A DNA stretch of 49,082 nucleotides, from positions 1-49,082 of the forward strand of contig JAUIKA010000001.1 in the NCBI GenBank assembly GCA_030430995.1, in the 5' to 3' direction. The notes under the pieces are model-generated. The model saw only the letters and a list, made by a program, of their open reading frames with translations, was not told the origin of the DNA and searched no databases. A program made the position numbers and the translations under genes. Of this stretch, positions 2,728 to 41,833 are shown piece by piece (position 1 is the stretch's first letter; each line of letters begins with the position of its first letter). The stretch is from Alphaproteobacteria bacterium. Its GTDB lineage: Bacteria > Pseudomonadota > Alphaproteobacteria > Rickettsiales > Rickettsiaceae.

Positions 2728-3882
2728 TTATCCCCCCATACCTGCATCGCCTTCAGTAAATTCAGCTGCACCTGCTAAATTAGTACCCCCTAAAAGATCC
2801 AAGTCAAACCCTAGCATTTTTGATGCAGCTAAAGAAATATCCTTATCTTCTTGAAGCAATTGCTCAATTTGCTCTTCTGTGAAGCCTGTTTTTTGAGCAA
2901 GTTTTTCAACCTCTTGAGTAAACTCTAATAAATCAAGAAGCTGCTTGACTTTTCCTTCAGCTCTTCCTTTAGCTTCTCCTTCAGCTCTTCCTTTAGCTTC
3001 TCTCTCAAGTAACAATTCCTCTCCTTCTTCTTCGTTTCTTACCCATTTCCAATGCATAGCTCTCTCATCAGGTTCCCATGTCATTTGGTCCATAGCTATA
3101 TAGCTTTTCTTTATAATATCATCCCTATCTTCTGGAGCATTTTGCTGAACTGAGCATGTTAATAAGAAGTCTAATATCTGTAATTTTAATGGACTATCTT
3201 TTGTAATATTTTCTGAATCTGGATGTTTTTGAAATTTACCTAGTTCAAAAAACTTCCAATGCATTTTATTCCCTGGATATACCTCTTGGGTTTGCTGTAC
3301 AGTAGGGATAACATCTATTTCATACAAAGTTTGGTCTTTTAAAGCTGTATTTCCTATAAATACATTTTCTTTTGACAAAACTATTATATATGTATCTAAA
3401 ACCTTTTCATGATAACGTGAACCTTCACCCTCTCTTACCTGCCCAGAGATAAGTTTAGTCATATATTCTTGCTCTCGTGCAAGGAAATATTTAGTCTTTT
3501 TCCTTTGCATCTCTACTGCTATCTTCTGCCCTGATGTGGTAGTACATAAAACATCTATAGCGCCTCTAATACTAGGACTATCTCCTATAAGCTTGCATCT
3601 CTCTAATGCAGCATCATTGATGCTAACATCTTGTATTTCTTTATTACCTGTGAACCCTAAGAAGCTATTTAGAGCACTAATTAATATCTCTTTATTTGCT
3701 TCTGTGCCAAATAATTTCCTAAATGTATCATCATAAGTAGGGTCTGCAAATCTCCTTTCCGGAATCAAGGTAGTTGTTGCAAAACTTCTAACAAATTGCT
3801 TTTGGGGCATTGTATATTTAGGCGCTAATACATACGACATGCATGGGAGTGTTTGTAATCCTTGACGTAACATTGGCAACAT
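2728..3882 (-). CDS. Rpn/PD-(D/E)xK family nuclease ('transposase-like') with extended Gly-rich C-terminal tail
   Basis: ADPTYDDTFRKLFG near the N-terminus and DVLCTTTSGQKIAVEMQ (D..E.Q nuclease core) are present. There is a tandem EAKGRAEG x2 (24-nt repeat at about 2950-3000). The true start may be the internal Met about 24 codons downstream. Confidence 0.65.
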   Translation of the reverse strand: MLPMLRQGLQTLPCMSYVLAPKYTMPQKQFVRSFATTTLIPERRFADPTYDDTFRKLFGTEANKEILISALNSFLGFTGNKEIQDVSINDAALERCKLIGDSPSIRGAIDVLCTTTSGQKIAVEMQRKKTKYFLAREQEYMTKLISGQVREGEGSRYHEKVLDTYIIVLSKENVFIGNTALKDQTLYEIDVIPTVQQTQEVYPGNKMHWKFFELGKFQKHPDSENITKDSPLKLQILDFLLTCSVQQNAPEDRDDIIKKSYIAMDQMTWEPDERAMHWKWVRNEEEGEELLLEREAKGRAEGEAKGRAEGKVKQLLDLLEFTQEVEKLAQKTGFTEEQIEQLLQEDKDISLAASKMLGFDLDLLGGTNLAGAAEFTEGDAGMGG

Positions 3883-4027
3883 ATGTTTTACCTTATAGAT
3901 TGTTAGTTTTTATAATAACATAAATCTATTACTTATGTTGTTAGTTTTTATTTTTAGTCTTCAAACATATTATTGCTTGCATGATAGTTAATATCTTTTA
4001 TATAATTAGCCTTTAAACACTTAATTT

Positions 4028-4796: not shown

Positions 4797-5015
4797 TGTA
4801 TAATATGAAATTTTCTTCGGTTGAACTTGAGATTTGTAACAATACTTGTCATAGAGTAGATAAACTACTGAAACTATTAAAAGAGTAACTACGCAGCATC
4901 TGATCTTGCTACATTTCTTTCTGCTACAACAGCTTTCTTATGCCTCTTTACTTATTTCATTATTCTGCACTTCTGACATATCCTTTTCTTTTTATAAATT
5001 ATTATAATTAACTTA

Positions 5016-29395: not shown

Positions 29396-31915
29396 TTAAT
29401 TCTCTTGAGAAAAAGAGTTACTATTAGCTGGCCTGTTTAATTTTGTAATTAGGATTTCACCATACTTTCCTTTCTTATTTATTTCATACGCAAATTCTTG
29501 CTGATCTAAAAATTTAAAGACCCCCTCCCAATTTAGTAAGTAGGTATTCAAAAATCTCTCTCCTTTAGAAAACTCTAAAATTTCTTTTTTTGAAAAAATA
29601 TACCCCTTATAACGAAGACAGATCTGTATTTCATTATCCTTATTATAAAAATCTATATAAATAACGCTAGAATCGATAGCTAAATTAACTACATTGGTGA
29701 CTATACTGAATAGTATTTGATATGTCAGAGGCTTAGGCAGCGGGAAATCCTCTATGGTTTTTAGAAAATTAATTTTCTGTTTTTTTTGTTTCAATTTTAT
29801 ATCAACAAATGACTTTATCTCTTCCAAGAGAATCTCTAGATCTTGTTTTGAAGTGCTCGCTGAATACCCATGAATAAAGTTGCTTTGAACCATTTTTTGC
29901 ATTACATAATATCTCTCTACTATTGAGAAAAATTTCTCTTCGATATTGGTTTTTTTGGTGATAATATTTAATGGGATATTCCCATTTAAGTCACTCTTTT
30001 GATAATTTCTATACTGGGGAAAAAGTGTATTCCCGCGCCTAAAAAAAAGCAATATAAAAAATCCTAATAGTAAGCACCCTATGTAATAGGGTAAATATTG
30101 GAAATTTATTTTTAAATCTGGAACATATGCAGAATTGAAAGCTGCTACTAATAAAATAACAAGCACTGTTATTCTAATTAATTGAAACAGGTTAATAAAA
30201 AATAAAAAATTCGATAAAAAGATTATTCCAAAAGGAATTATATAAATTCGCGAAAGATTTACCCCCTCTATTATTAAAATTGAAGTGAAAATATTTATAA
30301 AAAGGGTTAGTTTCCAATACAAATCAAGATTCTTTATAAACTTAATCCAATATTCATAAAAAACTAACATTAGGTTTATACTCAATGTGACATAAATTAC
30401 TATTTCTAATACCTTGTCTTCCTTAATAAAAAAAATTAGAACAGGGCTATAGGATAAAAAACTTACCACTAATAAAAGCGGGAATTTCCCTTTCTCCAAG
30501 ACGGAAGGAAAAAAGCTTTGCTTATTTAAATACCCCATTAAAAGGGGTAAGTAATTTTTTTTACTATCAAAACTTAACATTAAGTGCGATACAACAAATG
30601 TAGTGAAACTAGCTATTATTCCTATCAACGCACTAAAAGAAGAAAATTTTCCATCATAAAAAGCTGCAACATTTGTTGCTATCACAGCACCTATTAAAGC
30701 TATATGAAATGTGGCCTTATTAGTTTTTATTCCTAAAAAACCTAAAATTAATGGGACGAGAATTATTGGATGAGAAAAGTTAGATACAAAAAATACTATA
30801 TCATGTATTTTATAATTTTTTAATGCAATTGGTAATACTGTAAACCCAACAAATAACCCCACTCCTCTTAAAATTAATAAATTACCATTAAAATTTGGGA
30901 ACACCTTATATATAAAATCTTTTGCTATGATTACACTTGTAGTGTTTAAATATGAATCTGCTGTTGACATAATAACTGCCAAGATACTACAAATCATTAC
31001 TCCTGTCAGCCCTATTCCTAGATTTTTAGAGGCAAAATCTAAAAGTTCCAAATTTTGATTTGTATCAGTTATTTGTATCCTTGATAAAAATCCTATAATG
31101 ATAATTACAACATAGAATACAACAGATAAAGCACCGGTTATACAAAAAGATTTTAATATATTTTCTTTTTTTTTCTGCATCAGAACTCTTTGGATAAAAG
31201 GAGCTTCACAAGGAATAAAGTATAGTAACATTCCTAGCATAATAAAAATATCATTGCTTGTAATTTTTATATGGCAACAGTCTCTCTTTATTTTATTTAC
31301 AAATATTTGTATGCCACCTACATTTTCTATTCCTTTAAGGCAAACTAATGGAAATACAATGAAGAATATAAAAAACTGTAGTACATCTGTAAGTGCAACC
31401 GATTGGATGCCTCCGACTACAGAGTAGATTGTAAAAATAAAAACACAAATTACTGCCCCATGAACATAATTTATCCCGAAATAATTTGATATATTTGCTA
31501 AAGCCGTAACTTGAACAGAAAGAAACCCTATAGACGTAATTATCACTGAAGTGCTTACTATAACTTTAGCAGTAGTCCCATAAAACTTCTCTATAATATC
31601 TGGCAAAGTTAAACAATCTTTTAAATTTGCTTTTCTAGAATATATATACCCTGAAAGCAACCAACTCAATGGTTTTAATAATGTAGCTAATATATATGCA
31701 ACATTTAAGGCATAAACACTACCCACTCCCCCCATTGTAGTACTAGAGCTAATCCCTGTAGCAAATAATGTACCTACCATCACCGTATTAGAGAAGTTGC
31801 CTTTTCCAAGTGTATATTCTTCTACTGTTTTTACTTTGTTATACTTATAAAATCCTATTATTAGGCATAATAATAAATACCCCAAAACAATAGAAATATC
31901 TAAATATTCATACAT
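29396..31915 (-). CDS. Sodium:solute symporter (SSF) domain fused to extra TM segments and a about 200-aa cytoplasmic domain of uncertain (GHKL-like?) fold
   Basis: 839 aa. The N-terminal about 470 aa are SSF-like (..GNFSNTVMVGTLFATGISSSTTMGG.., ..GGIQSVALTDVLQFFIF..). The C-terminus has a weak N-box-like NVVNLAID but no G1/G2 boxes that I can see. Confidence 0.6.
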   Translation of the reverse strand: MYEYLDISIVLGYLLLCLIIGFYKYNKVKTVEEYTLGKGNFSNTVMVGTLFATGISSSTTMGGVGSVYALNVAYILATLLKPLSWLLSGYIYSRKANLKDCLTLPDIIEKFYGTTAKVIVSTSVIITSIGFLSVQVTALANISNYFGINYVHGAVICVFIFTIYSVVGGIQSVALTDVLQFFIFFIVFPLVCLKGIENVGGIQIFVNKIKRDCCHIKITSNDIFIMLGMLLYFIPCEAPFIQRVLMQKKKENILKSFCITGALSVVFYVVIIIIGFLSRIQITDTNQNLELLDFASKNLGIGLTGVMICSILAVIMSTADSYLNTTSVIIAKDFIYKVFPNFNGNLLILRGVGLFVGFTVLPIALKNYKIHDIVFFVSNFSHPIILVPLILGFLGIKTNKATFHIALIGAVIATNVAAFYDGKFSSFSALIGIIASFTTFVVSHLMLSFDSKKNYLPLLMGYLNKQSFFPSVLEKGKFPLLLVVSFLSYSPVLIFFIKEDKVLEIVIYVTLSINLMLVFYEYWIKFIKNLDLYWKLTLFINIFTSILIIEGVNLSRIYIIPFGIIFLSNFLFFINLFQLIRITVLVILLVAAFNSAYVPDLKINFQYLPYYIGCLLLGFFILLFFRRGNTLFPQYRNYQKSDLNGNIPLNIITKKTNIEEKFFSIVERYYVMQKMVQSNFIHGYSASTSKQDLEILLEEIKSFVDIKLKQKKQKINFLKTIEDFPLPKPLTYQILFSIVTNVVNLAIDSSVIYIDFYNKDNEIQICLRYKGYIFSKKEILEFSKGERFLNTYLLNWEGVFKFLDQQEFAYEINKKGKYGEILITKLNRPANSNSFSQEN

Positions 31916-32405
31916 ATATATCTTTTTTTAAAAAATATCTTTTAACGGGAAGTGGATATTCTCTAACAAATTCTACTTTATATCCGTGTTTTTTATATAA
32001 GTCCAAAGAATCTTCATAAATTGTCTCTAAAGTAATAAATGAACATTTTGCTAAACAAGCTTCTCTGTAAGCAAAATCTAGCAATTTGCCTGCTATTCCT
32101 TTTCTTCGGAAGTATTTTTCAACAAATAAGTATCTTATTTCGATGGTACTAAAAAAATACCTTAATACAATGTGTCCTGCTATATCTTTTCCTTTTTTTG
32201 CATGATAGACCAAATAGTCTGATGCGTGGTTTTCAGAAAAAATTTCAGTGAAATAGTCCCTAAATTTGTTCTTTATCTTCATAAAACAAATGTCAAAAGA
32301 TTGGCTTTTTTCTATAGTGAAACCATGATTATTCATTTGAATACATCGAGATTCTTCCATTTTCATAATACAACTTTTATACATGTTAAGCATAAACCAA
32401 TTCAT
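31908..32405 (-). CDS. GNAT-family N-acetyltransferase
   Basis: ..LFVEKYFRRKGIAGKLLDFAYREA..ITLET..DSLDLYKKHGYK is the R/Q-x-x-G-x-G/A acetyl-CoA motif. The start is uncertain (several in-frame Met). It overlaps the rep stop and the SSF start. Confidence 0.75.
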   Translation of the reverse strand: MNWFMLNMYKSCIMKMEESRCIQMNNHGFTIEKSQSFDICFMKIKNKFRDYFTEIFSENHASDYLVYHAKKGKDIAGHIVLRYFFSTIEIRYLFVEKYFRRKGIAGKLLDFAYREACLAKCSFITLETIYEDSLDLYKKHGYKVEFVREYPLPVKRYFLKKDIYV

Positions 32406-33996
32406 CTAATTTTTCAGGATTATTTTCAAAAATCGGGATGAGATAGTCCCTCAAATCTTGTTCTGATCTCTCAGAGCCTAAATGCTGCAAAAACATCTTT
32501 TTCTGTGTTTTCTGATTTAAATTTCTGTCATAAGCCTGAAACTTTAGCAGACTCAAGCTGTTAGCCATATTTTGAGGGCTGTGTTGCTGCATCATAATAA
32601 GTATTTGCCTATAGGTAAACTCTAACCCTAAAAGATAGTCTATCATATTATTTAACTTTCCCCCCTCCCCTTTTCTACTAGTTCCTAATATTTCTTTGTA
32701 AGATTCAGGAATATCAAGTTCTTTAGCTTGTTTTTGTTGCCACTGCAATTGAACAAATTCTTCTAGGGTTTGCTCTAATCTATGATCTTCAACTAGTATT
32801 TCAGCTTTATCTAACTGCTCAGCAGCTTGTAGTTTATGAGGAGTTTGCCAATTTCCTTGCAAGGCAAGCCCGTAAGCAACAGACAAAGCTATCTCGCTCC
32901 CTTGTTTGTCAGACAAACCTATCATAGATTTAGGCTTCCAGTTAGCAGCTTGATAAACAAACTCACTAGCTAATCTATGAGGATTAATCTCTTTTCTTTT
33001 TTGCCTATCTAGTTTATTCCACACAGAGTAAGCATATTTCTCTGCTTTTGTTTTTAGTTGTTCCCCTAGTTTTTCTTTTGAAATAGAGAGTAACTTAGAA
33101 AAAGATTTTTTAGAATTAAAAATCTTCTTTAAGTTATTCTTTATATTATTATTTTTTATAGTGTTTTTATTATTATATTGACTTATTTGAGCAATAGAAG
33201 GGTCTGCTGCTGCAATGTCACTCTTTGTCTCTTGGTGAGCATTAGCTTTTAGTGATTTAATAGCGCTTTCCTCAAGGATAGAGAAATTCCATAAGACTTT
33301 GTCATATCTATTACTGTCAATATTTTTAGCTAAAACCTTTTCTTTAGATAAATAGCCAGCTGCTATTAGAGTTTTTATAGCCCTACAGATAGAGGAAGAC
33401 GTAGATGAGAACTTTGATATAATTTCTTTGCTAGAGAAGGTAACGTTATTAGATTTATTAATATAAGCTTTTGAGGCTAGCCAGATTAGAATTAGTTTGG
33501 CTAAATCAGGTAGATCTTTACTAGAAAGGATCTTTTTAACAAAAGAGTAATCCAATAAAATAAACATTTTTACTCTATCTAGATAATCAAGATAAGACTC
33601 TTTAGTAGACTCAAAAGGATCGTGATGACCATAACTATCCTTGGCTATTTTATTTAAGTAATTGAAATTACCATCAGGCAGTGTTGGAGTAATAACGTTG
33701 CGGAAAGATTTTCCCCTCTTGTCTTTTTGCCTAAGAATTTTTATATATCCTTTTTCCTCCATAGATTTTTGTAGGGCGAATATTTTAGATTTAGAGTAAA
33801 TAAGTTTTTTAGCCCAAGTTTCAGCAGAGAATGATGCAGATCTCCCCTCCCCTACTCCTTTATTGAAGTGAGACAAAGAACATAGAGAAAAATAGAAGAC
33901 TTTCTCTGAGTTAGTTAGTCCTTTAAATGGTGAGTCCTCATGGACCCATAATATATGATCAAGCAATGCTTGTGGTGTTTTTGTGTAATTATTCAT
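32386..33996 (-). CDS. Candidate plasmid replication initiator (two winged-helix-like modules)
   Basis: 536 aa. ..KIFALQKSMEEKGYIKILRQKDKRG.. and ..SSSICRAIKTLIAAGYLSKEKV.. are wHTH-like. It is adjacent to an AT-rich gap and the repeat array, and divergent from parA. Confidence 0.5.
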   Translation of the reverse strand: MNNYTKTPQALLDHILWVHEDSPFKGLTNSEKVFYFSLCSLSHFNKGVGEGRSASFSAETWAKKLIYSKSKIFALQKSMEEKGYIKILRQKDKRGKSFRNVITPTLPDGNFNYLNKIAKDSYGHHDPFESTKESYLDYLDRVKMFILLDYSFVKKILSSKDLPDLAKLILIWLASKAYINKSNNVTFSSKEIISKFSSTSSSICRAIKTLIAAGYLSKEKVLAKNIDSNRYDKVLWNFSILEESAIKSLKANAHQETKSDIAAADPSIAQISQYNNKNTIKNNNIKNNLKKIFNSKKSFSKLLSISKEKLGEQLKTKAEKYAYSVWNKLDRQKRKEINPHRLASEFVYQAANWKPKSMIGLSDKQGSEIALSVAYGLALQGNWQTPHKLQAAEQLDKAEILVEDHRLEQTLEEFVQLQWQQKQAKELDIPESYKEILGTSRKGEGGKLNNMIDYLLGLEFTYRQILIMMQQHSPQNMANSLSLLKFQAYDRNLNQKTQKKMFLQHLGSERSEQDLRDYLIPIFENNPEKLDELVYA

Positions 33997-34310
33997 TCTG
34001 TACTAATTTCATTCCTTTTAGAAGCTCAACACTTGCTTTATAAGAAAAAAAGTAGTACACTTATGTTGTTTGATGGATGTACTTTGTTTTGATTTCTTGT
34101 AAGGCAAAGTGCGCCTAATTTTATTCATCCCTTTTTATTTTTGCATTTAATACTGCAAACTTTAATCTATATCTATAAAATTTTTATATCGGCTCATATA
34201 TTTCTTATCAAATTTTCTTTTCACTATAATAATACATTATTAACCATTACATACTACGAGATTTTTTCCTCAGGATCAAGTAAAAATTTAAAATTATTTG
34301 ATATATCATA

Positions 34311-34670
34311 ATAATATGTATTGATATGTACTGGTATGTACTGGTATGTACTGGTATGTATTGATATGTACTGGTATGTACTGGTATGTATTGATATGTA
34401 CTGGTATGTACTGGTATGTATTGATATGTACTGGTATGTACTGGTATGTATTGATATGTACTGGTATGTATTGATATGTACTGGTATGTACTGGTATGTA
34501 TTGATATGTATTGATATGTACTGGTATGTACTGGTATGTATTGATATGTACTGGTATGTACTGGTATGTATTGATATGTACTGGTATGTATTGATATGTA
34601 CTGGTATGTATTGATATGTACTGATATGTACTGGTATGTATTGATATGTATTGATATGTACTGGTATGTA
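34311..34670. repeat. Array of 35 (+1 degenerate) contiguous 10-bp repeats; candidate centromere (parC/parS) and/or iterons
   Basis: Counted directly: 14 x TTGATATGTA, 20 x CTGGTATGTA and 1 x CTGATATGTA, with no spacers. The degenerate units ATAATATGTA (34311) and TTATATAATA (34671) flank it. It lies between rep and parA, and its end abuts a TATAAT-like box (34674-34679). Confidence 0.85.
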
Positions 34671-34716
34671 TTATATAATAGAAAAGAGTAGGGTATTATA
34701 TAAAATATAAGAGAAT

Positions 34717-35361
34717 ATGTTTATTCTAATAGGAGGAGAAAAAGGTGGAACAGGTAAGAGTTGCCTTTCTCAGAACATAGCTGTACTTTTACAAAAAATA
34801 AAAGGGCAAATACTAATAATAGATTGTGATCCGCAAAAAACAACATCCGATTGGGTTCAGGAGAGAAATAGTAACAAAGATAATACATACATAGAATGCA
34901 TACAGTTATATGGAAATATACTTCATACTTTAGAAAGTCTAAAAGAAAAATATAGTACTATATTAGTTGATTGTGGTGGTCAAGATACAAAGGCTTTAAG
35001 ATCTTCATTAGTAACATGTACACACGCTTTATTTCCAATAAGACCTAAAAGAAGGGATCTCAGAACAATTAAGCATTTAGAAGAATTAATTACAGAGGTG
35101 AAGGTTACAAACCCTAACATAAATCTATCTGTTATAATAAATCAAGCACCACCATTACCATCTCAGTATAAGAGAATTTTAGATGCAAAAGATACGTGTA
35201 AAACATGGGGGTTGCCATGTTTAGATACCGTAATATTTAATAGAAATATTTATGATGATAGTGAAGAGATGGGATTGAGTGTACATGAAATTGGTACAGA
35301 CAGTAAAGCAGAAGACGAATTAAATTCCTTATTAAAAGAGTTCTTAGATGTCAAAATTTGA
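34717..35361 (+). CDS. parA: Small (type Ib) ParA partition ATPase
   Basis: 214 aa. The deviant Walker A GGEKGGTGKS and ..ILIIDCDPQ.. are present. Confidence 0.9.
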   Translation: MFILIGGEKGGTGKSCLSQNIAVLLQKIKGQILIIDCDPQKTTSDWVQERNSNKDNTYIECIQLYGNILHTLESLKEKYSTILVDCGGQDTKALRSSLVTCTHALFPIRPKRRDLRTIKHLEELITEVKVTNPNINLSVIINQAPPLPSQYKRILDAKDTCKTWGLPCLDTVIFNRNIYDDSEEMGLSVHEIGTDSKAEDELNSLLKEFLDVKI

Positions 35362-35584
35362 TGATTTAAAAAAACAAAGATTTATTAATCAAGTTACAGA
35401 ATATTCTGAAGGTACAAAAAGAAAGAATATCACAATAAGCATTAACGAAGAATGTTTAAATGTATTAGAGGCTGTATCTAAAGAAGAGCGATTACCAAAG
35501 TCGTTTATTATAAGGTCGGCAATAATAGCTTTTTATGAAATGTCCAGAGAAGAAAAAAATAAAATTTATAACAAGGTATCATAA
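35348..35584 (+). CDS. Ribbon-helix-helix centromere-binding protein candidate (ParG/omega-like)
   Basis: 78 aa and overlaps the parA end. ..KRKNITISINEECLNVLEAVSKEERLPKSFIIRSAIIAFYE matches the RHH beta-alpha-alpha pattern. Confidence 0.6.
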   Translation: MSKFDDLKKQRFINQVTEYSEGTKRKNITISINEECLNVLEAVSKEERLPKSFIIRSAIIAFYEMSREEKNKIYNKVS

Positions 35585-35588
35585 AAAT

Positions 35589-36122
35589 ATGTATCAAGGG
35601 AATCAAATAACAACTTTTCAGTTAAAAGGGGCTAGATACGCGTTAGATATAACTACAAAGGAATTGGGGGAATATATTCAATTTAGCTCAACAACTATTT
35701 CAACCCTTGAAAGAAAAGGGTTATCGGAGTTTGTAGATATTGATAGAAAAAAAATTAACCTTTTAGTAAGATTTTTTAATGATAAAGGAATACATTTTCC
35801 AGATCAATATTCTATTTTAAACAACAAGATACAAGATATAGAAAAGGATGTGCTTACTAGGTTTCAAATTCGTTCATCAAGAAAAATTCTTAATATCACA
35901 CAAAAACTATTAGCAGAAAAAATTTCTATTGAAGTCAATATTCTTAATGCTTTAGAGCGACTAAATAATACATCAATTATTGCAAAAAAAAATTTACAAG
36001 AAACTAATAAGTTTATTGATTATAATAATCTTATAGATTTTTTTAAAGGAAAAAATATCTTATTTCTCCATAATAATACAATATGCAATAACCATCAAAC
36101 CCCCTTTCCCAGTCCAAAGTGA
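35589..36122 (+). CDS. Protein with two XRE-type HTH repeats
   Basis: The start is placed at the ATG at 35589 (MYQGNQ..), 4 nt after the RHH gene stop. ..LKGARYALDITTKELGEYIQFSSTTISTLERKG.. and ..IRSSRKILNITQKLLAEKISIEVNILNALER.. are the two HTH repeats. The 3' end overlaps the relaxase 3' end by 28 nt (convergent). Confidence 0.55.
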   Translation: MYQGNQITTFQLKGARYALDITTKELGEYIQFSSTTISTLERKGLSEFVDIDRKKINLLVRFFNDKGIHFPDQYSILNNKIQDIEKDVLTRFQIRSSRKILNITQKLLAEKISIEVNILNALERLNNTSIIAKKNLQETNKFIDYNNLIDFFKGKNILFLHNNTICNNHQTPFPSPK

Positions 36123-39100
36123 TGTCCATGAGATATCTCTTGAGCTTGTTCGTGGTGATGCTGCAGCCCTTTTTCTAAAAGGTGGTGATCATGATGCTGA
36201 GCTAGTTGTGTATATTTACCTATAATGTCTCGTGGATCATGATCATGCAACATATTGTGCCCTACATTCATATGCTCATGATGTTGGTGATGATTATCAC
36301 GATCATGCTCCATCATTCTTCTAGCTTCTAATCTTGCTAGATGCTCTAGATGAGGATCAAATCTTTTATTTATCCCAAATCTATCACATCCATATTTCTT
36401 TAAACTTTCCTGCCTATATTTTTCTACTCTCTCTGGTTTGAATAACTCATAACTATATGCCTTTTCTGATATATCTTTTATAGCCATTTGCCTTTGCTCA
36501 TCTGTAAATATTTTAGCGCTTATTTGAACTGCGTGGACCATACCAAGCTCTTTTGCTGCAGAGGCTATAAATCCGTCTATCATTTCTGATGTTATTGGAG
36601 TCCCTTTTGTTAGATTATGATCTAGGATGTTTTCAGCGAAATAGGTTCTAACTCGCTCATCTGCGTGTATTTGAGTTGGGATCCTTTTAGTTAGGTCGTC
36701 TAGCTTTTCTTTATACTGATCCCTTGATAGGCCATATCTTAAAGATAAATATTTATCATAACTTTTCTCTGGATCTTTGACGTCTATTTCTTTAAAAAGC
36801 TTAGATAATTCTTTTTCATAACCTTGGTTGTCCCAGTCTGGAGTAGGCCCTTTATCTATAGATTTCTGAGCTATATCTAAAGCTATATTTATAGTTTCTT
36901 TCTGAGTTAAATTATCTTTTTTATCCATTAGGGCAGTCAGCAGTTCTGTATCCTCTAGTTTATTAGCTTCTTTTACAAAACAAGATACTTTATAACTCTC
37001 TCTTAATTCAGCTAATGGTATCTCTCTATTTTCTCCTAAAAGCTCATGTTTTTTATTCTCAATGGTAAAAAACTCTTTTAAAACAGTTGAAGTCTCTTGA
37101 GCTTTTTCTAGATCTAGCATAGTTTGCCTCTCAAGCTGAAGAGTTTTTTCATCTAATATCTTTAAGCCATCAACCTTCTCTAAAAACAGCTCCTGAATTT
37201 TCTCAGCCCCTTCTTCTTTTAGCATATCATTAAAGTCAGTATTTGCTTTCTCTGGCATCACTACAGATATTTTAGCTCCTGCTTTTTCTATAGCTTCTAT
37301 GGTCGTCTCTATAATCTTACTAATAGTTTTACTATCTCCATCATTATCTAAGGCCAAAATAATATGCTCATTTTCCTTTGGTTGATAGTTTTTGATATTG
37401 CTTATTCCAAGAGAGCATTTGATATTAGCATCAAGCCCTGCTTCTTTTATAGATAGGGCTGTCTCTAATCCTTCTGCTATAATAGTCTTATTTGAGCTCA
37501 AGGACTCCCCAGCGCTGACAAAAGCCCCCTTTATCTGCCCATAAGAACGTTTAGTTTCTTTCTCAGCAGTGAAAGCATTTAATATAATTCCTTGATGCCC
37601 TGTTATATTATTATTACCGTCTCTGGCAAAACAGACTAGGGCAGGGCATCTTTGCCCTATATGCACTACAGTAGTAGCTTTTATATCATCGCTTAAACCA
37701 CAAGTGATACCTCTATGATTTGCTAAATAAACGCTAGCAGCTTGAGCTACTAAGTTAGGTTTGATATCTTTGGCTTTAAGATTATTATATTTATCCCAAA
37801 CTTCTTTATGATTAGCCTTAAGATAAGCTGATTTATATATTTCTCCGGCATAAGCGGTGGCGTGAGCTTTGTTGTACACATAGCTACTTGCAGATATCAT
37901 CTTAGTCAGCAATTTTCCTCCTCCTGCTATAGAGCATCCCTGCATAATAGCACCTCTTCTATCACCTATCTCTTGCCTGATTTCAAATTTTTTCGTATCC
38001 AGCTGCTTCTGAGGTGATTTTAAAGACTCCTGAAGTTTGTTTATATTATGCAGCTCTTTTCTAAAATTATTAGGCTCTTTTGAGCTAAAATACTCTTTTC
38101 CGGCTTTCATGATTTGCTCTTGGAATAATATTGCACCTTTAGTATTTGTAAATACTCCTTTTGGATCAGGCAAGTGAGATTTAACTCCTCCTGATAATAT
38201 CTCAATCTGGTCTCTTGCTCCTGGCCGAATAGCGGCAGAGAGATTTACTAGATCTTCCATAGATCTAGGTTGCAGCTTTTGGCAATATTTACCGCTGGAG
38301 CCAAGCTGAAACACCCCAGCAACATTTCCAGATGAGATTAATTCAAAAGTCTTTTGATCATGGTGGGGTAGGGCGCTTATGCCCGCCTGCCTCATCATCA
38401 TATCAGTTTTTGCTAAATGATTAGATGAGAGCAAGTCCAATTTATGTTCAGGCTCCTTTATTAGCCCTTTATTTACTACTCCGCCAATGCCAATGCTGCA
38501 AATATGAGGTTCGCCATTTTTATCTAAAACTCTTCCTCCAGAGTATTTGTTTAATATATATTTTTCTACTAAATCTCTATGCCTACTATCTATATCAAAG
38601 TCAAAATCAGGTCTGTTATCAGGAGATAAAAATCTCTCCTGCATAAGTCCTTGTCGCTCTATATCGTTATTATGTAGCCCTAATGCTTTGGCGGCAATAG
38701 AGCTATTAGCAGAGCCCCTGAGCAGATAAGAGATATTGTTAAACTGGCAGAAATTTTTAATATCATGAGCAATTAAAAAATCTCTAGCATATCCATTTTC
38801 TTTAATGATATGCAGTTCTTTTTCTAATTTACTATATGGTATATCTTTAGTATATTGAGGCTTGAAAGCTAAACTTCGCAATGTCTGATATGGACTGCTA
38901 TTATTTAAATTGTAACCGCTGGCTCTAGAGAAATTATGTTCTTCCTTGATTTCAATACTACTGCCTCTATTATATAACTGGCGGCTTCTATTAGTTTTTG
39001 CTTTTTTATTATCTATAGCAGCCACATCAAGCTTAAGTTTATCTTTAAATGCAGAGATATCATGAGAGATATCCGCCCCACTATCTTTAGTCATCTGTTT

Positions 39101-41833
39101 TAGATAAATAGCAGATTCTTTTATCCCTATCTCTTTATGCTCAGATACAAAAGAGAGCATATCACCACCTTTGCCTGTAGAGTGATCATACCATAGACCT
39201 GACTTAGGCCCGGAAGTAGTAACTATAATTTTGCCATTTTCCCCATACCGGAGCATAGACCCATTCGATAAGATCTCATTAGGAGCTCCTAAAATTGATA
39301 AAGCTATCTTTTCAGCAGCAAAAGCAGCATCTCTTTTTATTCTAGCAAAATCTAGGTGGTTAGAGCTTTTTGTTGATTTGTCGCTAAAATGCTCAATATT
39401 ATCTTCCCATCCGCTAAGCTTAGCTACTTTAAATACCTGCCTTCTATCTAGAGTATCCTCTATAAATCTATAGTAATTCTCATCACTATTGATATTATCA
39501 TTCCAGTACATTTTCAGCTTAAACTTAAGATCACTAAACCTTCCTTTTTTTTGAGTTAAATCTTCATGAGTAAAATAAGACAAACTTGCTGCATTATTTT
39601 GTGGAGCGGATAGCTGAGCGGTAAGCGCTTCTATATCAGGAGTTTTAGAAGTATCGGCATAGATTTTTAGGCCTATTACATGGCGAGTCATCTGAACATA
39701 GCTATTATTTATAGTGGAAAACCCACTATGAAGCACAAAAACACAGCCTAAAGAAGCCCCTTGAGATTTATAAACAGTAGAAGCATAACCATGCTTTATA
39801 TGGTGGAAATAATAAGGATTAAATTCAACTTCTCTGCCATCATCTATTTTTACTCTAATAGAGACAAATCTATTAGTATCAGTAGCATCCCCATTGCTTT
39901 TGATTTCTAATATGCGGCCAAATTCACTATTATAAACTCCAATAGATCTATTTGTTTTAGTAAATACAATCCGATCCCCTTCAGCAAAAGGGAGCTTTTG
40001 ATAGCCGATTTGCCAATCATCTTTTCCTAGCTTTCCGGCTTGCTTTAGCCTATGCCGAGCCATTTCATTTAAATGATCAACATCTTTATTAGCAATAGCT
40101 AATATCTGACGCTTTTGTAGGTCAAAAGGACTATTTTCCCAGTGACCTATGAGCTTCATCTTTGAGTCATAATCAGTATTTGAAAAATGTACATCTTCTT
40201 CAAATATCTTCAAAGCTTTCATCACTTGAGATTTAGCCATAAGTTCAGCTGCATGCCTATGCTTCTCTGATTTTTGCCTATGAACTTCAGTTAGCTCAAA
40301 AGATCCAAATTTATCAGCTAAAACCTCAAACATTCCGCCACGAGAGATAGAGGATAGTTGCCTCTCATCTCCAGCTAAGATTAAAGAGCAATCAATTTTA
40401 TCTAGTAGTTTCAATAGCTCCCTATAGGTAGGAGTAGATACCATAGCAGCTTCATCTATGATAATAGTATTAATATTCTCTAGATCGGCTTTGCCGACTC
40501 TAGCCTTCCAAAGGAAGCTATCTATGGTAAAGCTATTTTCAAATCCTTTTTCCTTCAGTTCAATTGAAGCTTTATGCGTAGGAGCTAAAGCTGTTATCTC
40601 TTTAGAGGCAAGTTTAGAAAGTACGGTTGATTTGCCAGTTCCAGCCCTGCCTTTTAAAATCTTTAATGCTCCATCTTTTTTTGAGGTTAAAAACTCTAGA
40701 GCATCTCTTTGGTGATCAGACAAATTTTCTATATCTTTAAAGGCAAACTGTTTTACTTCCACAGTAGAGTTAAGAAGACCTGCTCGATATAAAACTCTTT
40801 GCTCTTCAACTCTAACCTCTTTAGTAGTAAAAAAATCAGTCTTAGTTCCATCCGCTAAATATAAAGGAATCATCCTAGAAGAAGCCATAGCCTCTTTAAC
40901 CAGAGAAAACCTCACGGAAGAGTCAATCATGTGCTTAACAGCTCTTTTAAGCTCATACTCGCTAAATACAGATTTAGTACTAGTGACTCTATCAAGCACG
41001 CTATCGCCATCTTTTAAAATCTCTAGATTAGCTTCATGAATTACCTCGTTTTTAGAGATATTTTTATTTTCAGCAGATCTCATACGCCGAGGCCCTATAT
41101 GAATGGAGCCTAAATCAGCAGTAGGATCTACACGCAAAGCTAGGCCTTTTTCAATGAAATATTCGTTTTGGATATCTCTAGATATCTGCCCAATAATTCT
41201 ATTTTCAGGAATAGCAAAAGCTTTGCCAGAAGACTTATAAAACTCAGGATTAAGATCAGTAGCTTTTTTTGCTTCCAGAGCCTCTCCATCCTCTCTAAAT
41301 CTGCGAGTCGTAACCAAAAGATGAGCATGCCAATTATGGTCTCCATCATGAGGGCTGTGGATGTCTAATTGCACAGCTAGACCCTCCCGGACATATCCCA
41401 TGTGATCAATAATTCTTTTAGTGATCTCTATTCGGTCCTCTAAGATAATCTCTCTGTCATCAGGCAGGGCAATCACGATATCTTTCAGGACCTGAGAGTC
41501 TTTTCTTTTCTCATGAGACTCTACTAAGTTCATCAAAAGCTCAGGATCTTTATAAGCCTTATTAGCATGAGAAGGCAGCAAGACTTCATGATAAGCATTA
41601 TCGCCCCGATTAGAGAAGTCAAAAGTTCGATTAGCTCTACTATCTTTTACTCGCACTCTAGCATTATAAGCGGCCTTCAAACAGCTATTACCTCCGCTGG
41701 ATCTAGATACCATTTCAATACGTGCAAACTGGATAGCCACTAATTTATCTATTTTAAGCTTGTTTATTATAAAAGAGGAGAAAACCATACCTTCTTGAAC
41801 CAGTATAACATTTCTAATGTTGCTAGGCAACAT
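36095..41833 (-). CDS. traA_Ti: Multidomain relaxase: MobA/MobL (MOBQ, TraA_Ti-like) + RecD-like helicase + Cys-less primase helper domain + DnaE-like polymerase core + Toprim + helical region + His-rich tail
   Basis: Relaxase: VAIQFARIEMVSRSSGG..LKAAYNAR.. and HSPHDGDHNWHAHLLVTTR (about 41100-41740). Helicase: GRAGTGKST, IIIDEAAMV, YASTVYKSQGASL (about 39700-40750). Helper domain: about 39100-39305. DnaE-like: 37796-38827. Toprim: YLANHRGI...IIAEGLETALS...LALDNDGD (about 37230-37745). The start codon is uncertain (an internal Met/GTG nearer to MAIqf.. is possible). Confidence 0.85.
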   Translation of the reverse strand: MLPSNIRNVILVQEGMVFSSFIINKLKIDKLVAIQFARIEMVSRSSGGNSCLKAAYNARVRVKDSRANRTFDFSNRGDNAYHEVLLPSHANKAYKDPELLMNLVESHEKRKDSQVLKDIVIALPDDREIILEDRIEITKRIIDHMGYVREGLAVQLDIHSPHDGDHNWHAHLLVTTRRFREDGEALEAKKATDLNPEFYKSSGKAFAIPENRIIGQISRDIQNEYFIEKGLALRVDPTADLGSIHIGPRRMRSAENKNISKNEVIHEANLEILKDGDSVLDRVTSTKSVFSEYELKRAVKHMIDSSVRFSLVKEAMASSRMIPLYLADGTKTDFFTTKEVRVEEQRVLYRAGLLNSTVEVKQFAFKDIENLSDHQRDALEFLTSKKDGALKILKGRAGTGKSTVLSKLASKEITALAPTHKASIELKEKGFENSFTIDSFLWKARVGKADLENINTIIIDEAAMVSTPTYRELLKLLDKIDCSLILAGDERQLSSISRGGMFEVLADKFGSFELTEVHRQKSEKHRHAAELMAKSQVMKALKIFEEDVHFSNTDYDSKMKLIGHWENSPFDLQKRQILAIANKDVDHLNEMARHRLKQAGKLGKDDWQIGYQKLPFAEGDRIVFTKTNRSIGVYNSEFGRILEIKSNGDATDTNRFVSIRVKIDDGREVEFNPYYFHHIKHGYASTVYKSQGASLGCVFVLHSGFSTINNSYVQMTRHVIGLKIYADTSKTPDIEALTAQLSAPQNNAASLSYFTHEDLTQKKGRFSDLKFKLKMYWNDNINSDENYYRFIEDTLDRRQVFKVAKLSGWEDNIEHFSDKSTKSSNHLDFARIKRDAAFAAEKIALSILGAPNEILSNGSMLRYGENGKIIVTTSGPKSGLWYDHSTGKGGDMLSFVSEHKEIGIKESAIYLKQMTKDSGADISHDISAFKDKLKLDVAAIDNKKAKTNRSRQLYNRGSSIEIKEEHNFSRASGYNLNNSSPYQTLRSLAFKPQYTKDIPYSKLEKELHIIKENGYARDFLIAHDIKNFCQFNNISYLLRGSANSSIAAKALGLHNNDIERQGLMQERFLSPDNRPDFDFDIDSRHRDLVEKYILNKYSGGRVLDKNGEPHICSIGIGGVVNKGLIKEPEHKLDLLSSNHLAKTDMMMRQAGISALPHHDQKTFELISSGNVAGVFQLGSSGKYCQKLQPRSMEDLVNLSAAIRPGARDQIEILSGGVKSHLPDPKGVFTNTKGAILFQEQIMKAGKEYFSSKEPNNFRKELHNINKLQESLKSPQKQLDTKKFEIRQEIGDRRGAIMQGCSIAGGGKLLTKMISASSYVYNKAHATAYAGEIYKSAYLKANHKEVWDKYNNLKAKDIKPNLVAQAASVYLANHRGITCGLSDDIKATTVVHIGQRCPALVCFARDGNNNITGHQGIILNAFTAEKETKRSYGQIKGAFVSAGESLSSNKTIIAEGLETALSIKEAGLDANIKCSLGISNIKNYQPKENEHIILALDNDGDSKTISKIIETTIEAIEKAGAKISVVMPEKANTDFNDMLKEEGAEKIQELFLEKVDGLKILDEKTLQLERQTMLDLEKAQETSTVLKEFFTIENKKHELLGENREIPLAELRESYKVSCFVKEANKLEDTELLTALMDKKDNLTQKETINIALDIAQKSIDKGPTPDWDNQGYEKELSKLFKEIDVKDPEKSYDKYLSLRYGLSRDQYKEKLDDLTKRIPTQIHADERVRTYFAENILDHNLTKGTPITSEMIDGFIASAAKELGMVHAVQISAKIFTDEQRQMAIKDISEKAYSYELFKPERVEKYRQESLKKYGCDRFGINKRFDPHLEHLARLEARRMMEHDRDNHHQHHEHMNVGHNMLHDHDPRDIIGKYTQLAQHHDHHLLEKGLQHHHEQAQEISHGHHFGLGKGV

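Follow-up and report, generated by a model that had tools for sequence, protein, structure and literature searches.

A homogenised array of 35 unspaced decamers upstream of parA in a Rickettsiaceae replicon probably serves a type Ib partition system as operator and centromere

The region between the divergent rep and parA genes of this replicon contains a decamer array that is probably the cis-acting site of a type Ib plasmid partition system, i.e. a system consisting of a Walker-type ParA and an RHH protein. In the window, which is the whole stretch of 49,082 nucleotides that was analysed, the array occupies positions 34321-34670 of the forward strand and consists, as assembled, of 35 perfect decamers that follow each other head to tail and unspaced, and it belongs to a motif family with a 10-bp phase that is common to relatives. 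Judged from the sequence, a combined role as operator, via its overlap with the promoter, and as centromere is most likely. The locus has a small Walker ParA (type Ib range ~200-230 aa) with deviant Walker A motif and without an N-terminal DNA-binding domain, a small protein of predicted RHH fold encoded directly 3' of parA, and an array of short sub-sites (35-36 decamers) that lies upstream of the operon and overlaps its promoter. The NTPase beside the array is a Walker ATPase and not an actin-like ParM, as expected for type II (ParMRC) systems, and the repeats do not resemble Rep iterons of ~17-22 bp that co-localise with rep or the origin, as they are 10 bp long, unspaced, and associated with parA.

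The array is built from units A (TTGATATGTA, 14 copies) and B (CTGGTATGTA, 20 copies) and a single copy of unit C (CTGATATGTA), which differ at positions 1 and 4 alone and are arranged in the order ABBBABBABBABBABABBAABBABBABABACBAAB. On recount, the number of decamers, their composition and their order exactly matched the original prediction, whereas the span of 34311-34670 that had been given there needs a correction: the perfect array covers 34321-34670, and the first 10 bp (34311-34320, forward strand) are a degenerate 36th unit, ATAATATGTA, which is in phase and forms the rep-proximal edge of the array. TRF scores the array at 537 (period 30, 93% matches) and 504 (period 20), with 101 for the next best repeat of the window, and the rest of the 49 kb contains no further copy of decamer A or B. 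The unit order departs mildly from random, as, compared with shuffled orders, adjacent units are more rarely of the same type (0.29 vs 0.47, P ~0.008), whereas units three apart more commonly are (0.66 vs 0.47, P ~0.02). Together with the longest exact repeat inside the array, which measures 106 bp at an offset of 30 bp, this bias points to recent duplications in the ABB (30-bp) register, and as the units are alike outside two positions, the expansion appears to be very recent. No 127-mer is repeated in the array, which therefore can be assembled from reads of at least 150 nt, and 35 is the copy number of the assembly. The array looks like a recently expanded, homogenised descendant of an ancestral array, degenerate but strictly phased, such as relatives still have, and its 35 perfect units would recently have been generated by slippage or by unequal exchange, in registers of 10, 20 and 30 bp. 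A megablast of the rep-par and T4SS regions against PLSDB found no DNA-level relatives and no near-identical replicons for a comparison of copy numbers, the ParA cluster and the RHH cluster each contain the window's own contig alone, and a scan of GTDB genomes with Rep gave no match.

The gene behind the array, parA (34717-35361, forward strand), encodes a 214-aa Walker-type ATPase with CbiA, AAA_31 and MipZ matches, a deviant Walker A motif (GGEKGGTGKS, residues 6-15) and no N-terminal HTH domain. Its best solved relative is ParF of TP228 (4dzz, E 1.2e-6, residues 8-210), and the closest proteins, 73-77% identical, come from Rickettsiaceae MAGs and metagenomes. Directly downstream, overlapping the parA stop, follows the gene of the 78-aa protein (35348-35584, forward strand), which is the candidate centromere-binding protein and repressor. 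It matches RHH_3 with a modest score of 25.1 bits vs the Pfam cut-off of 21.6 and contains a putative beta-strand, KNITISI, and its N-terminal motif MSKFxDLKK is kept across the aligned relatives, as expected for a ParA-stimulating tail. In an AF2 model (two-sequence input, pLDDT 71.6), residues 7-23 are of low confidence or disordered, residues 24-33 are extended, and helices are formed by residues 34-47, 51-64 and 67-76, resulting in a tail-strand-helix-helix layout. A Foldseek search with this model ranked CopG first (TM 0.69, normalised to the target) in a list of mostly RHH proteins such as ParD, Arc, ORF56, ParG and pCXC100 ParB, at E-values that are not significant for a domain of this small size. 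We refer to the protein as RHH-like on the basis of the modest Pfam score, the AF2 model and these non-significant Foldseek matches. The next gene (35535-36122, forward strand) encodes a 195-aa XRE-like HTH protein, which in relatives is the third member of the par gene cluster. On the other side of the array, divergent from parA, lies the gene of a 536-aa DnaA-like/HTH_36 putative replication initiator (Rep; 32386-33996, reverse strand). On plasmids, relatives of Rep are confined to DnaA N-terminal domain proteins, which are encoded by 21 Rickettsia and two Ca. Megaera plasmids and share 28-42% identity with it over the N-terminal third to half.

The array reaches into the putative parA promoter. 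The best sigma-70-like site (34651-34679, forward strand; TTGATA-17-TATAAT, 11/12) is a consensus match only, in a region whose total of promoter-like matches is no higher than the shuffled expectation. The -35 box of this candidate is formed by the first six bases of unit 34, which is the last A unit, the spacer spans unit 35, and the -10 box follows immediately after the array. A TATAAT-like box at the end of the array, some 40 nt before parA, had been predicted, and it is indeed present at 34674-34679, 37 nt 5' of the parA ATG. A 21-nt direct repeat in two copies, GTATTATATAATAGAAAAGAG and GTATTATATAAAATATAAGAG (34668-34713, forward strand), extends across the -10 box, the parA leader and the Shine-Dalgarno region. 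The 314-bp spacer between rep and the array (33997-34310) is AT-rich, contains several imperfect inverted repeats, presumably houses the rep promoter, and could house the origin. The rep leader (33999-34107) has several imperfect inverted repeats that contain TGTAC and are no denser than background. Additional RHH sites near rep were considered and rejected, as the only candidate, a single inverted unit TACATACTAC with one mismatch at 34245-34254 (reverse strand), 57 bp before the array, is within the background of 0.84 per kb.

Comparison with relatives, i.e. with loci from Rickettsiaceae/Rickettsia MAGs and from freshwater and marine metagenomes whose ParA is 62-77% identical, indicates that phased YTRRTATGTA-like sub-sites upstream of parA are a family trait that is tied to parA and not to rep. 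In most of the sampled contigs, parA is followed by the RHH gene, and the HTH homologue was detected in 11 of 13 relatives. The DnaA-like rep, where detected, is found downstream of the par operon (L002, L090, L098), separated by another gene (L094) or elsewhere, whereas it is divergent in the window; the phased units remain upstream of parA while rep lies at least 1.7 kb off or on the other side. In eight of the nine close relatives that were tested, the motif YTRRTATGTA, with at most one mismatch, reaches ~8-100 times the density in the 260 bp before parA that it has elsewhere. An excess of 10-bp (and 20-bp) autocorrelation occurs in the 150 bp upstream of parA in all 11 relatives, with z of 1.9-5.9 each and a summed z of 39 at 10 bp vs -18 and -21 at 9 and 11 bp, and in terms of 10-bp periodicity this segment ranks first among all 150-bp segments in eight of the 11 loci and among the top three in all of them. 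No 10-bp excess exists at 78 gammaproteobacterial ParA loci of 47-59% identity (mean 0.004, sd 0.043, maximum 0.10).

The long perfect array occurs in the window only and in none of the sampled relatives, which have ~3-8 degenerate units each. The exception is L129 (ParA 75% identical) with 18-19 contiguous degenerate decamers of the consensus YT[AG][AG]TA[TC]NTA, which are in strict 10-bp phase without any indels and end 15 bp before the ATG. The fact that a long array stays in strict phase despite degenerate units argues for selection on both phase and length. Upstream of parA, the Rickettsia sp. locus L098 has the consecutive units TTAGTGTGTA, TTGATATGTA, TTAGTATGGG and GAAGTATGTA, L002 has a series that starts with CTAATATGTA and TTAATGTTTA as well as an inverted TACATACTAG, L090 has two copies of TGCATACTAA plus GTGGTATGTA, and L105 has six phased units, four of which end with (G/A)CATA. 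Perfect palindromes, TACTAGTA or ATACTAGTAT, are found at this position in several relatives. The contig with the closest RHH protein, L104 (55% identity), starts 26 bp before parA with ATATGTA, which would fit an assembly break within such an array. The initial assignment of the array as RHH-type Ib centromere and operator is thus consistent with the ParF-like ParA, the RHH-like 78-aa protein, the promoter overlap and the phased units of relatives.

Some relatives have further peculiarities. In L002/L003/L004, which have the closest ParA (77%), a tandem duplication (3476-3994; 93-96% identity) comprises the entire 260-bp operator region in front of parA, and related 10-bp motifs form another cluster between the RHH and HTH genes (4904-4964). 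Upstream of parA in L102 (76% ParA identity), at ~150-330, a 42-bp repeat (GCGTTATGGCTTGTTGCATAGTATTGTTGTTTGTTACGTA) is present four to five times, and the repeat architecture of the par family is evidently fast-evolving. The RHH gene of L099 (940-1270) is apparently frameshifted, being either a pseudogene or affected by an assembly error, and L104 encodes a second, partial RHH C-terminus (aa 45-77) at 954-1052, just downstream of the intact gene.

How could the array function as operator and centromere? Each decamer would be the sub-site for one dimer of the 78-aa protein, with the beta-ribbon of the dimer inserted into the major groove at the pseudo-palindrome TA-YTGR-TA. The dimers would align side by side, one per helical turn, as in CopG/Arc-type and pSK41 ParR-type complexes, and 35-36 dimers may coat up to ~360 bp. 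Since the putative parA promoter has its -35 box and spacer in the last two units, the coated array would also repress the par operon, and the exposed, conserved N-terminal tails of the bound dimers would recruit and stimulate ParA, thereby enabling the complex to act as a centromere. We know of no RHH partition protein that spreads along DNA, and to add sub-sites in cis would therefore be the way to a larger partition complex.

The symmetry of the units agrees with such a binding mode. Conserved are T5 and A6 as well as T9 and A10, with Y1, T2, R3 and R4 between them, which results in an 8-bp pseudo-palindrome, TA-YTRR-TA, that is separated from its neighbours by the two least conserved bases. 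The variant positions 1 and 4 are symmetric about its centre (TA-T-TG-A-TA vs TA-C-TG-G-TA), and such a pattern would suit recognition by an RHH dimer of two-fold symmetry, although the symmetry is suggestive at best, as it amounts to a single evolutionary event. As there are two founder unit types only, covariation of the two positions was dropped as statistical proof of a dyad. With respect to the helical geometry, the original prediction placed all sites on almost the same face of the DNA over about 33 turns. This is correct locally, but at 10.5 bp per turn each unit shifts by about -17 degrees, which adds up to ~1.7 turns over the array. A same-face geometry throughout the array would require the DNA to be overwound by protein binding, and otherwise the RHH-array complex would be a gentle left-handed spiral. 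To call a 10-bp period unusual for RHH centromeres would also be imprecise, as unspaced periods of 7, 8 and 9 bp are known from type Ib systems and 10 bp from the type II site pSK41 parC (PMC9499535, PMC3130281, PMC3074162, PMC5016525).

One could go further and propose that the 36 units carry a multi-turn superhelical or filament-like RHH-DNA segrosome, that their expansion was selected, and that A and B are loading sites of high and low affinity. We consider this extended proposal to be rather unlikely. If true, the segrosome would resemble the pSK41 ParR complex, and at 12 dimers per turn it would make about three turns here; the expansion would have been a selected route to a larger partition complex or to winning incompatibility contests, and the A and B units would determine the order of loading.

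What alternatives exist for a function of the array in partition? It could be a plain minisatellite on an ancestral operator that needs few sub-sites, and ~25-30 extra units would then have no selected role and be neutral or slightly costly products of slippage, which is common in AT-rich endosymbiont replicons; the RHH protein may bind these extra units incidentally. The indications of a recent expansion, i.e. the uniformity of the units outside two positions and the exact 106-bp repeat, would be expected in this case, and the few degenerate units of most relatives imply that extra copies may add nothing functional. Moreover, near-identical decamer arrays exist in eukaryote-like, giant-virus and lake contigs that have no par genes. 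A scan for a pattern of three tandem units gave no match in GTDB genomes and 79 loci in metagenomes, none of which encodes a ParA, RHH or Rep relative; these loci are unrelated satellites as well as lake contigs that carry 10-bp arrays of other kinds, and IMG/VR yielded three arrays, also unrelated. Since such arrays occur in unrelated contigs, a par site cannot be recognised by the decamer sequence alone. We nevertheless regard the minisatellite as a doubtful explanation of the array, although neutral expansion of an operator is plausible for the extra copies. L129 holds its units in strict phase despite heavy divergence, which means that long arrays of this subclade are kept under constraint, the array itself provides the best promoter with its -35 box, and in TP228 and pSM19035 centromere activity grows with the number of contiguous sub-sites (PMC3130281, PMC9499535).

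The arrays outside par loci have features of their own. Seven lake metagenome contigs (L023, L039, L064, L068, L077, L017 and L062; GC 0.43-0.47) contain several separate arrays of 50-110 bp with differing 10-bp units (CTGGTATGTA, GGTACATGGA, GGTACATCAA and others) and have no homologues of the par or rep genes of the window. In L023, which was read in detail, the 10-bp arrays are set out as long inverted repeats. The single contig L018 (124-631) has a CTGGTATGTA array that is degenerate and longer than 500 bp, and the Ga0126342 loci (e.g. L088, L037, L054), which come from a single sample, contain many TACATACCAA-type arrays that are probably a eukaryotic minisatellite.

An iteron-like origin or copy-control element, which would be read by the DnaA-like Rep and would act by initiator titration or handcuffing and not in partition, would make sense of the distance of only 314 bp between the array and the rep start, of the adjoining AT-rich spacer with its inverted repeats, and of the HTH_36 winged-helix domain of Rep. 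Against this stands the observation that the phased units of relatives track parA and not rep, with no comparable cluster beside rep in L002 or L090, and unspaced 10-bp units are far shorter than the spaced iterons of 17-22 bp. We thus consider such an element to be quite improbable, and the suggestion that the divergent Rep reads the array is not supported, since relatives keep the phased units at parA while rep lies elsewhere.

Similarly improbable is that the array is bound by the 195-aa double-HTH (XRE-like) protein instead of the RHH protein. For the Rickettsia plasmid pRM, a possible role in centromere binding has been suggested for HTH_XRE proteins (PMC9004397). The HTH gene is widespread in the relatives, and in two of them, L009 and L094, the phased region separates it from a divergently oriented parA. 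However, XRE-type dimers typically read palindromes of ~14-20 bp and not unspaced decamers, whereas sub-site palindromes of ~8-12 bp and a spacing of one per turn match RHH binding modes, and it is the RHH gene that is translationally coupled to parA, as in ParF-ParG. An assembly artefact, finally, in which the assembler produced the repeat length or order, is hardly credible: the contigs of several relatives break near this position (L104 at 26 bp before parA, L005-L008 at 190-330 bp upstream), but the unit order is irregular without repeated 127-mers, the flanks are unique, and phased arrays occur at the same position independently in many assemblies.

The type Ib assignment of the array has also to be seen in the context of the replicon. 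An F-type T4SS (TraG_N, TraH, TraN, TraC, TrbI-like) and a TraD-like coupling protein are encoded at 5611-28129 (reverse strand), and in combination with a relaxase this makes the window resemble a conjugative plasmid or a RAGE-like element with plasmid maintenance genes. The relaxase is a TraA-like protein of 1912 aa (36095-41833, reverse strand) with MobA_MobL and AAA_30/RecD-like helicase domains. Its residues 995-1268 are an internal DNA polymerase III alpha fragment (NTPase and finger domains), which is an odd insertion in a relaxase-primase and is followed by DUF7146 and Toprim_3. An 839-aa protein (29396-31915, reverse strand) has a sodium:solute symporter domain in its first ~400 residues only and no Pfam match in its C-terminal half, and its gene is followed by a small GNAT acetyltransferase gene (31908-32405). 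By tblastn with the 78-aa protein and with the protein encoded downstream of parA in L098, no RHH homologues were detected on PLSDB plasmids, including those of Rickettsia. In the case of pRM, neither the centromere nor its binding protein has yet been defined (PMC9004397). The array and the 78-aa protein would provide a candidate centromere and its candidate binding protein for the par module of replicons with Rickettsia-type DnaA-like initiators. If the assignment is true, a geometry of 10 bp and one dimer per turn, so far described for type II ParR, would here occur in a type Ib system, and the native A-only and B-only blocks would be a substrate for analysing how number, phase and affinity of sub-sites shape the segrosome and the activation of ParA. 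In length and regularity, the array would also surpass every other RHH sub-site array that we know of; the type Ib centromeres characterised so far are composed of 7-20 units.

Which known systems come closest? With the direct repeats of theta-plasmid Rep iterons, the array shares the position beside rep and an AT-rich region. Iterons are 17-22 bp long, usually spaced, and follow rep, whereas the units of the window are 10 bp long, unspaced, and found with parA in relatives. CopG/Arc-type dimers bind successive major grooves on one face and thereby bend the DNA, and CopG is the best fold match of the 78-aa model, but CopG/Arc operators take two to four dimers and have no partition role. The parC site of pSK41 has about eight 10-bp units and is thus far shorter than the array of the window, with which it shares the contiguous 10-bp repeats; the motor of this system is the actin-like ParM, and its ParR has an extra C-terminal domain. 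In this type II system, one RHH dimer binds each repeat, and the segrosome forms a superhelix, each turn of which comprises 12 dimers (~120 bp) (PMC5016525).

RHH centromere proteins that have been characterised bind arrays of short repeats, unspaced or at regular spacing, with one dimer per repeat (PMC3130281, PMC3074162, PMC9499535, PMC5016525). Among the type Ib systems, the parS site of pCXC100 consists of nine unspaced direct 9-bp repeats to which RHH dimers bind successively and cooperatively, each ParB dimer sensing also the flanking repeats (PMC3074162). The array of the window likewise consists of unspaced direct repeats, but pCXC100 differs in its 9-bp period and its 9-10 poorly conserved units. 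The delta/omega parS sites of pSM19035 are unspaced repeats that are bound by RHH dimers and overlap promoters, and at least four contiguous repeats are needed for ATPase activation (PMC9499535). The array of the window is also unspaced and overlaps a promoter, whereas pSM19035 has a 7-bp period, with 7-10 heptads of mixed orientation at each of three separate sites; due to this period, its dimers spiral left-handed round straight DNA with about four per turn. In TP228, the parH/OF site has 20 degenerate 4-bp ACTC boxes of mixed orientation with 4-bp AT spacers and hence an 8-bp period, and this upstream sub-site array, which dimers coat cooperatively at one per sub-site, is operator as well as centromere (PMC3130281). 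The par locus of the window resembles TP228 parFG in its small Walker ParA, the RHH partner gene directly 3' of parA, the flexible N-terminal tail of the partner and the upstream sub-site array; in terms of sequence, no similarity of the 78-aa protein to ParG was detected, and by fold ParG ranks 31st. Unlike the spaced and degenerate boxes of TP228, the units of the window are 35 perfect direct decamers. From the characterised type Ib systems as a whole, the locus differs in its 10-bp period, in its ~2-5 times higher number of units, and in the perfection of these units in two states.
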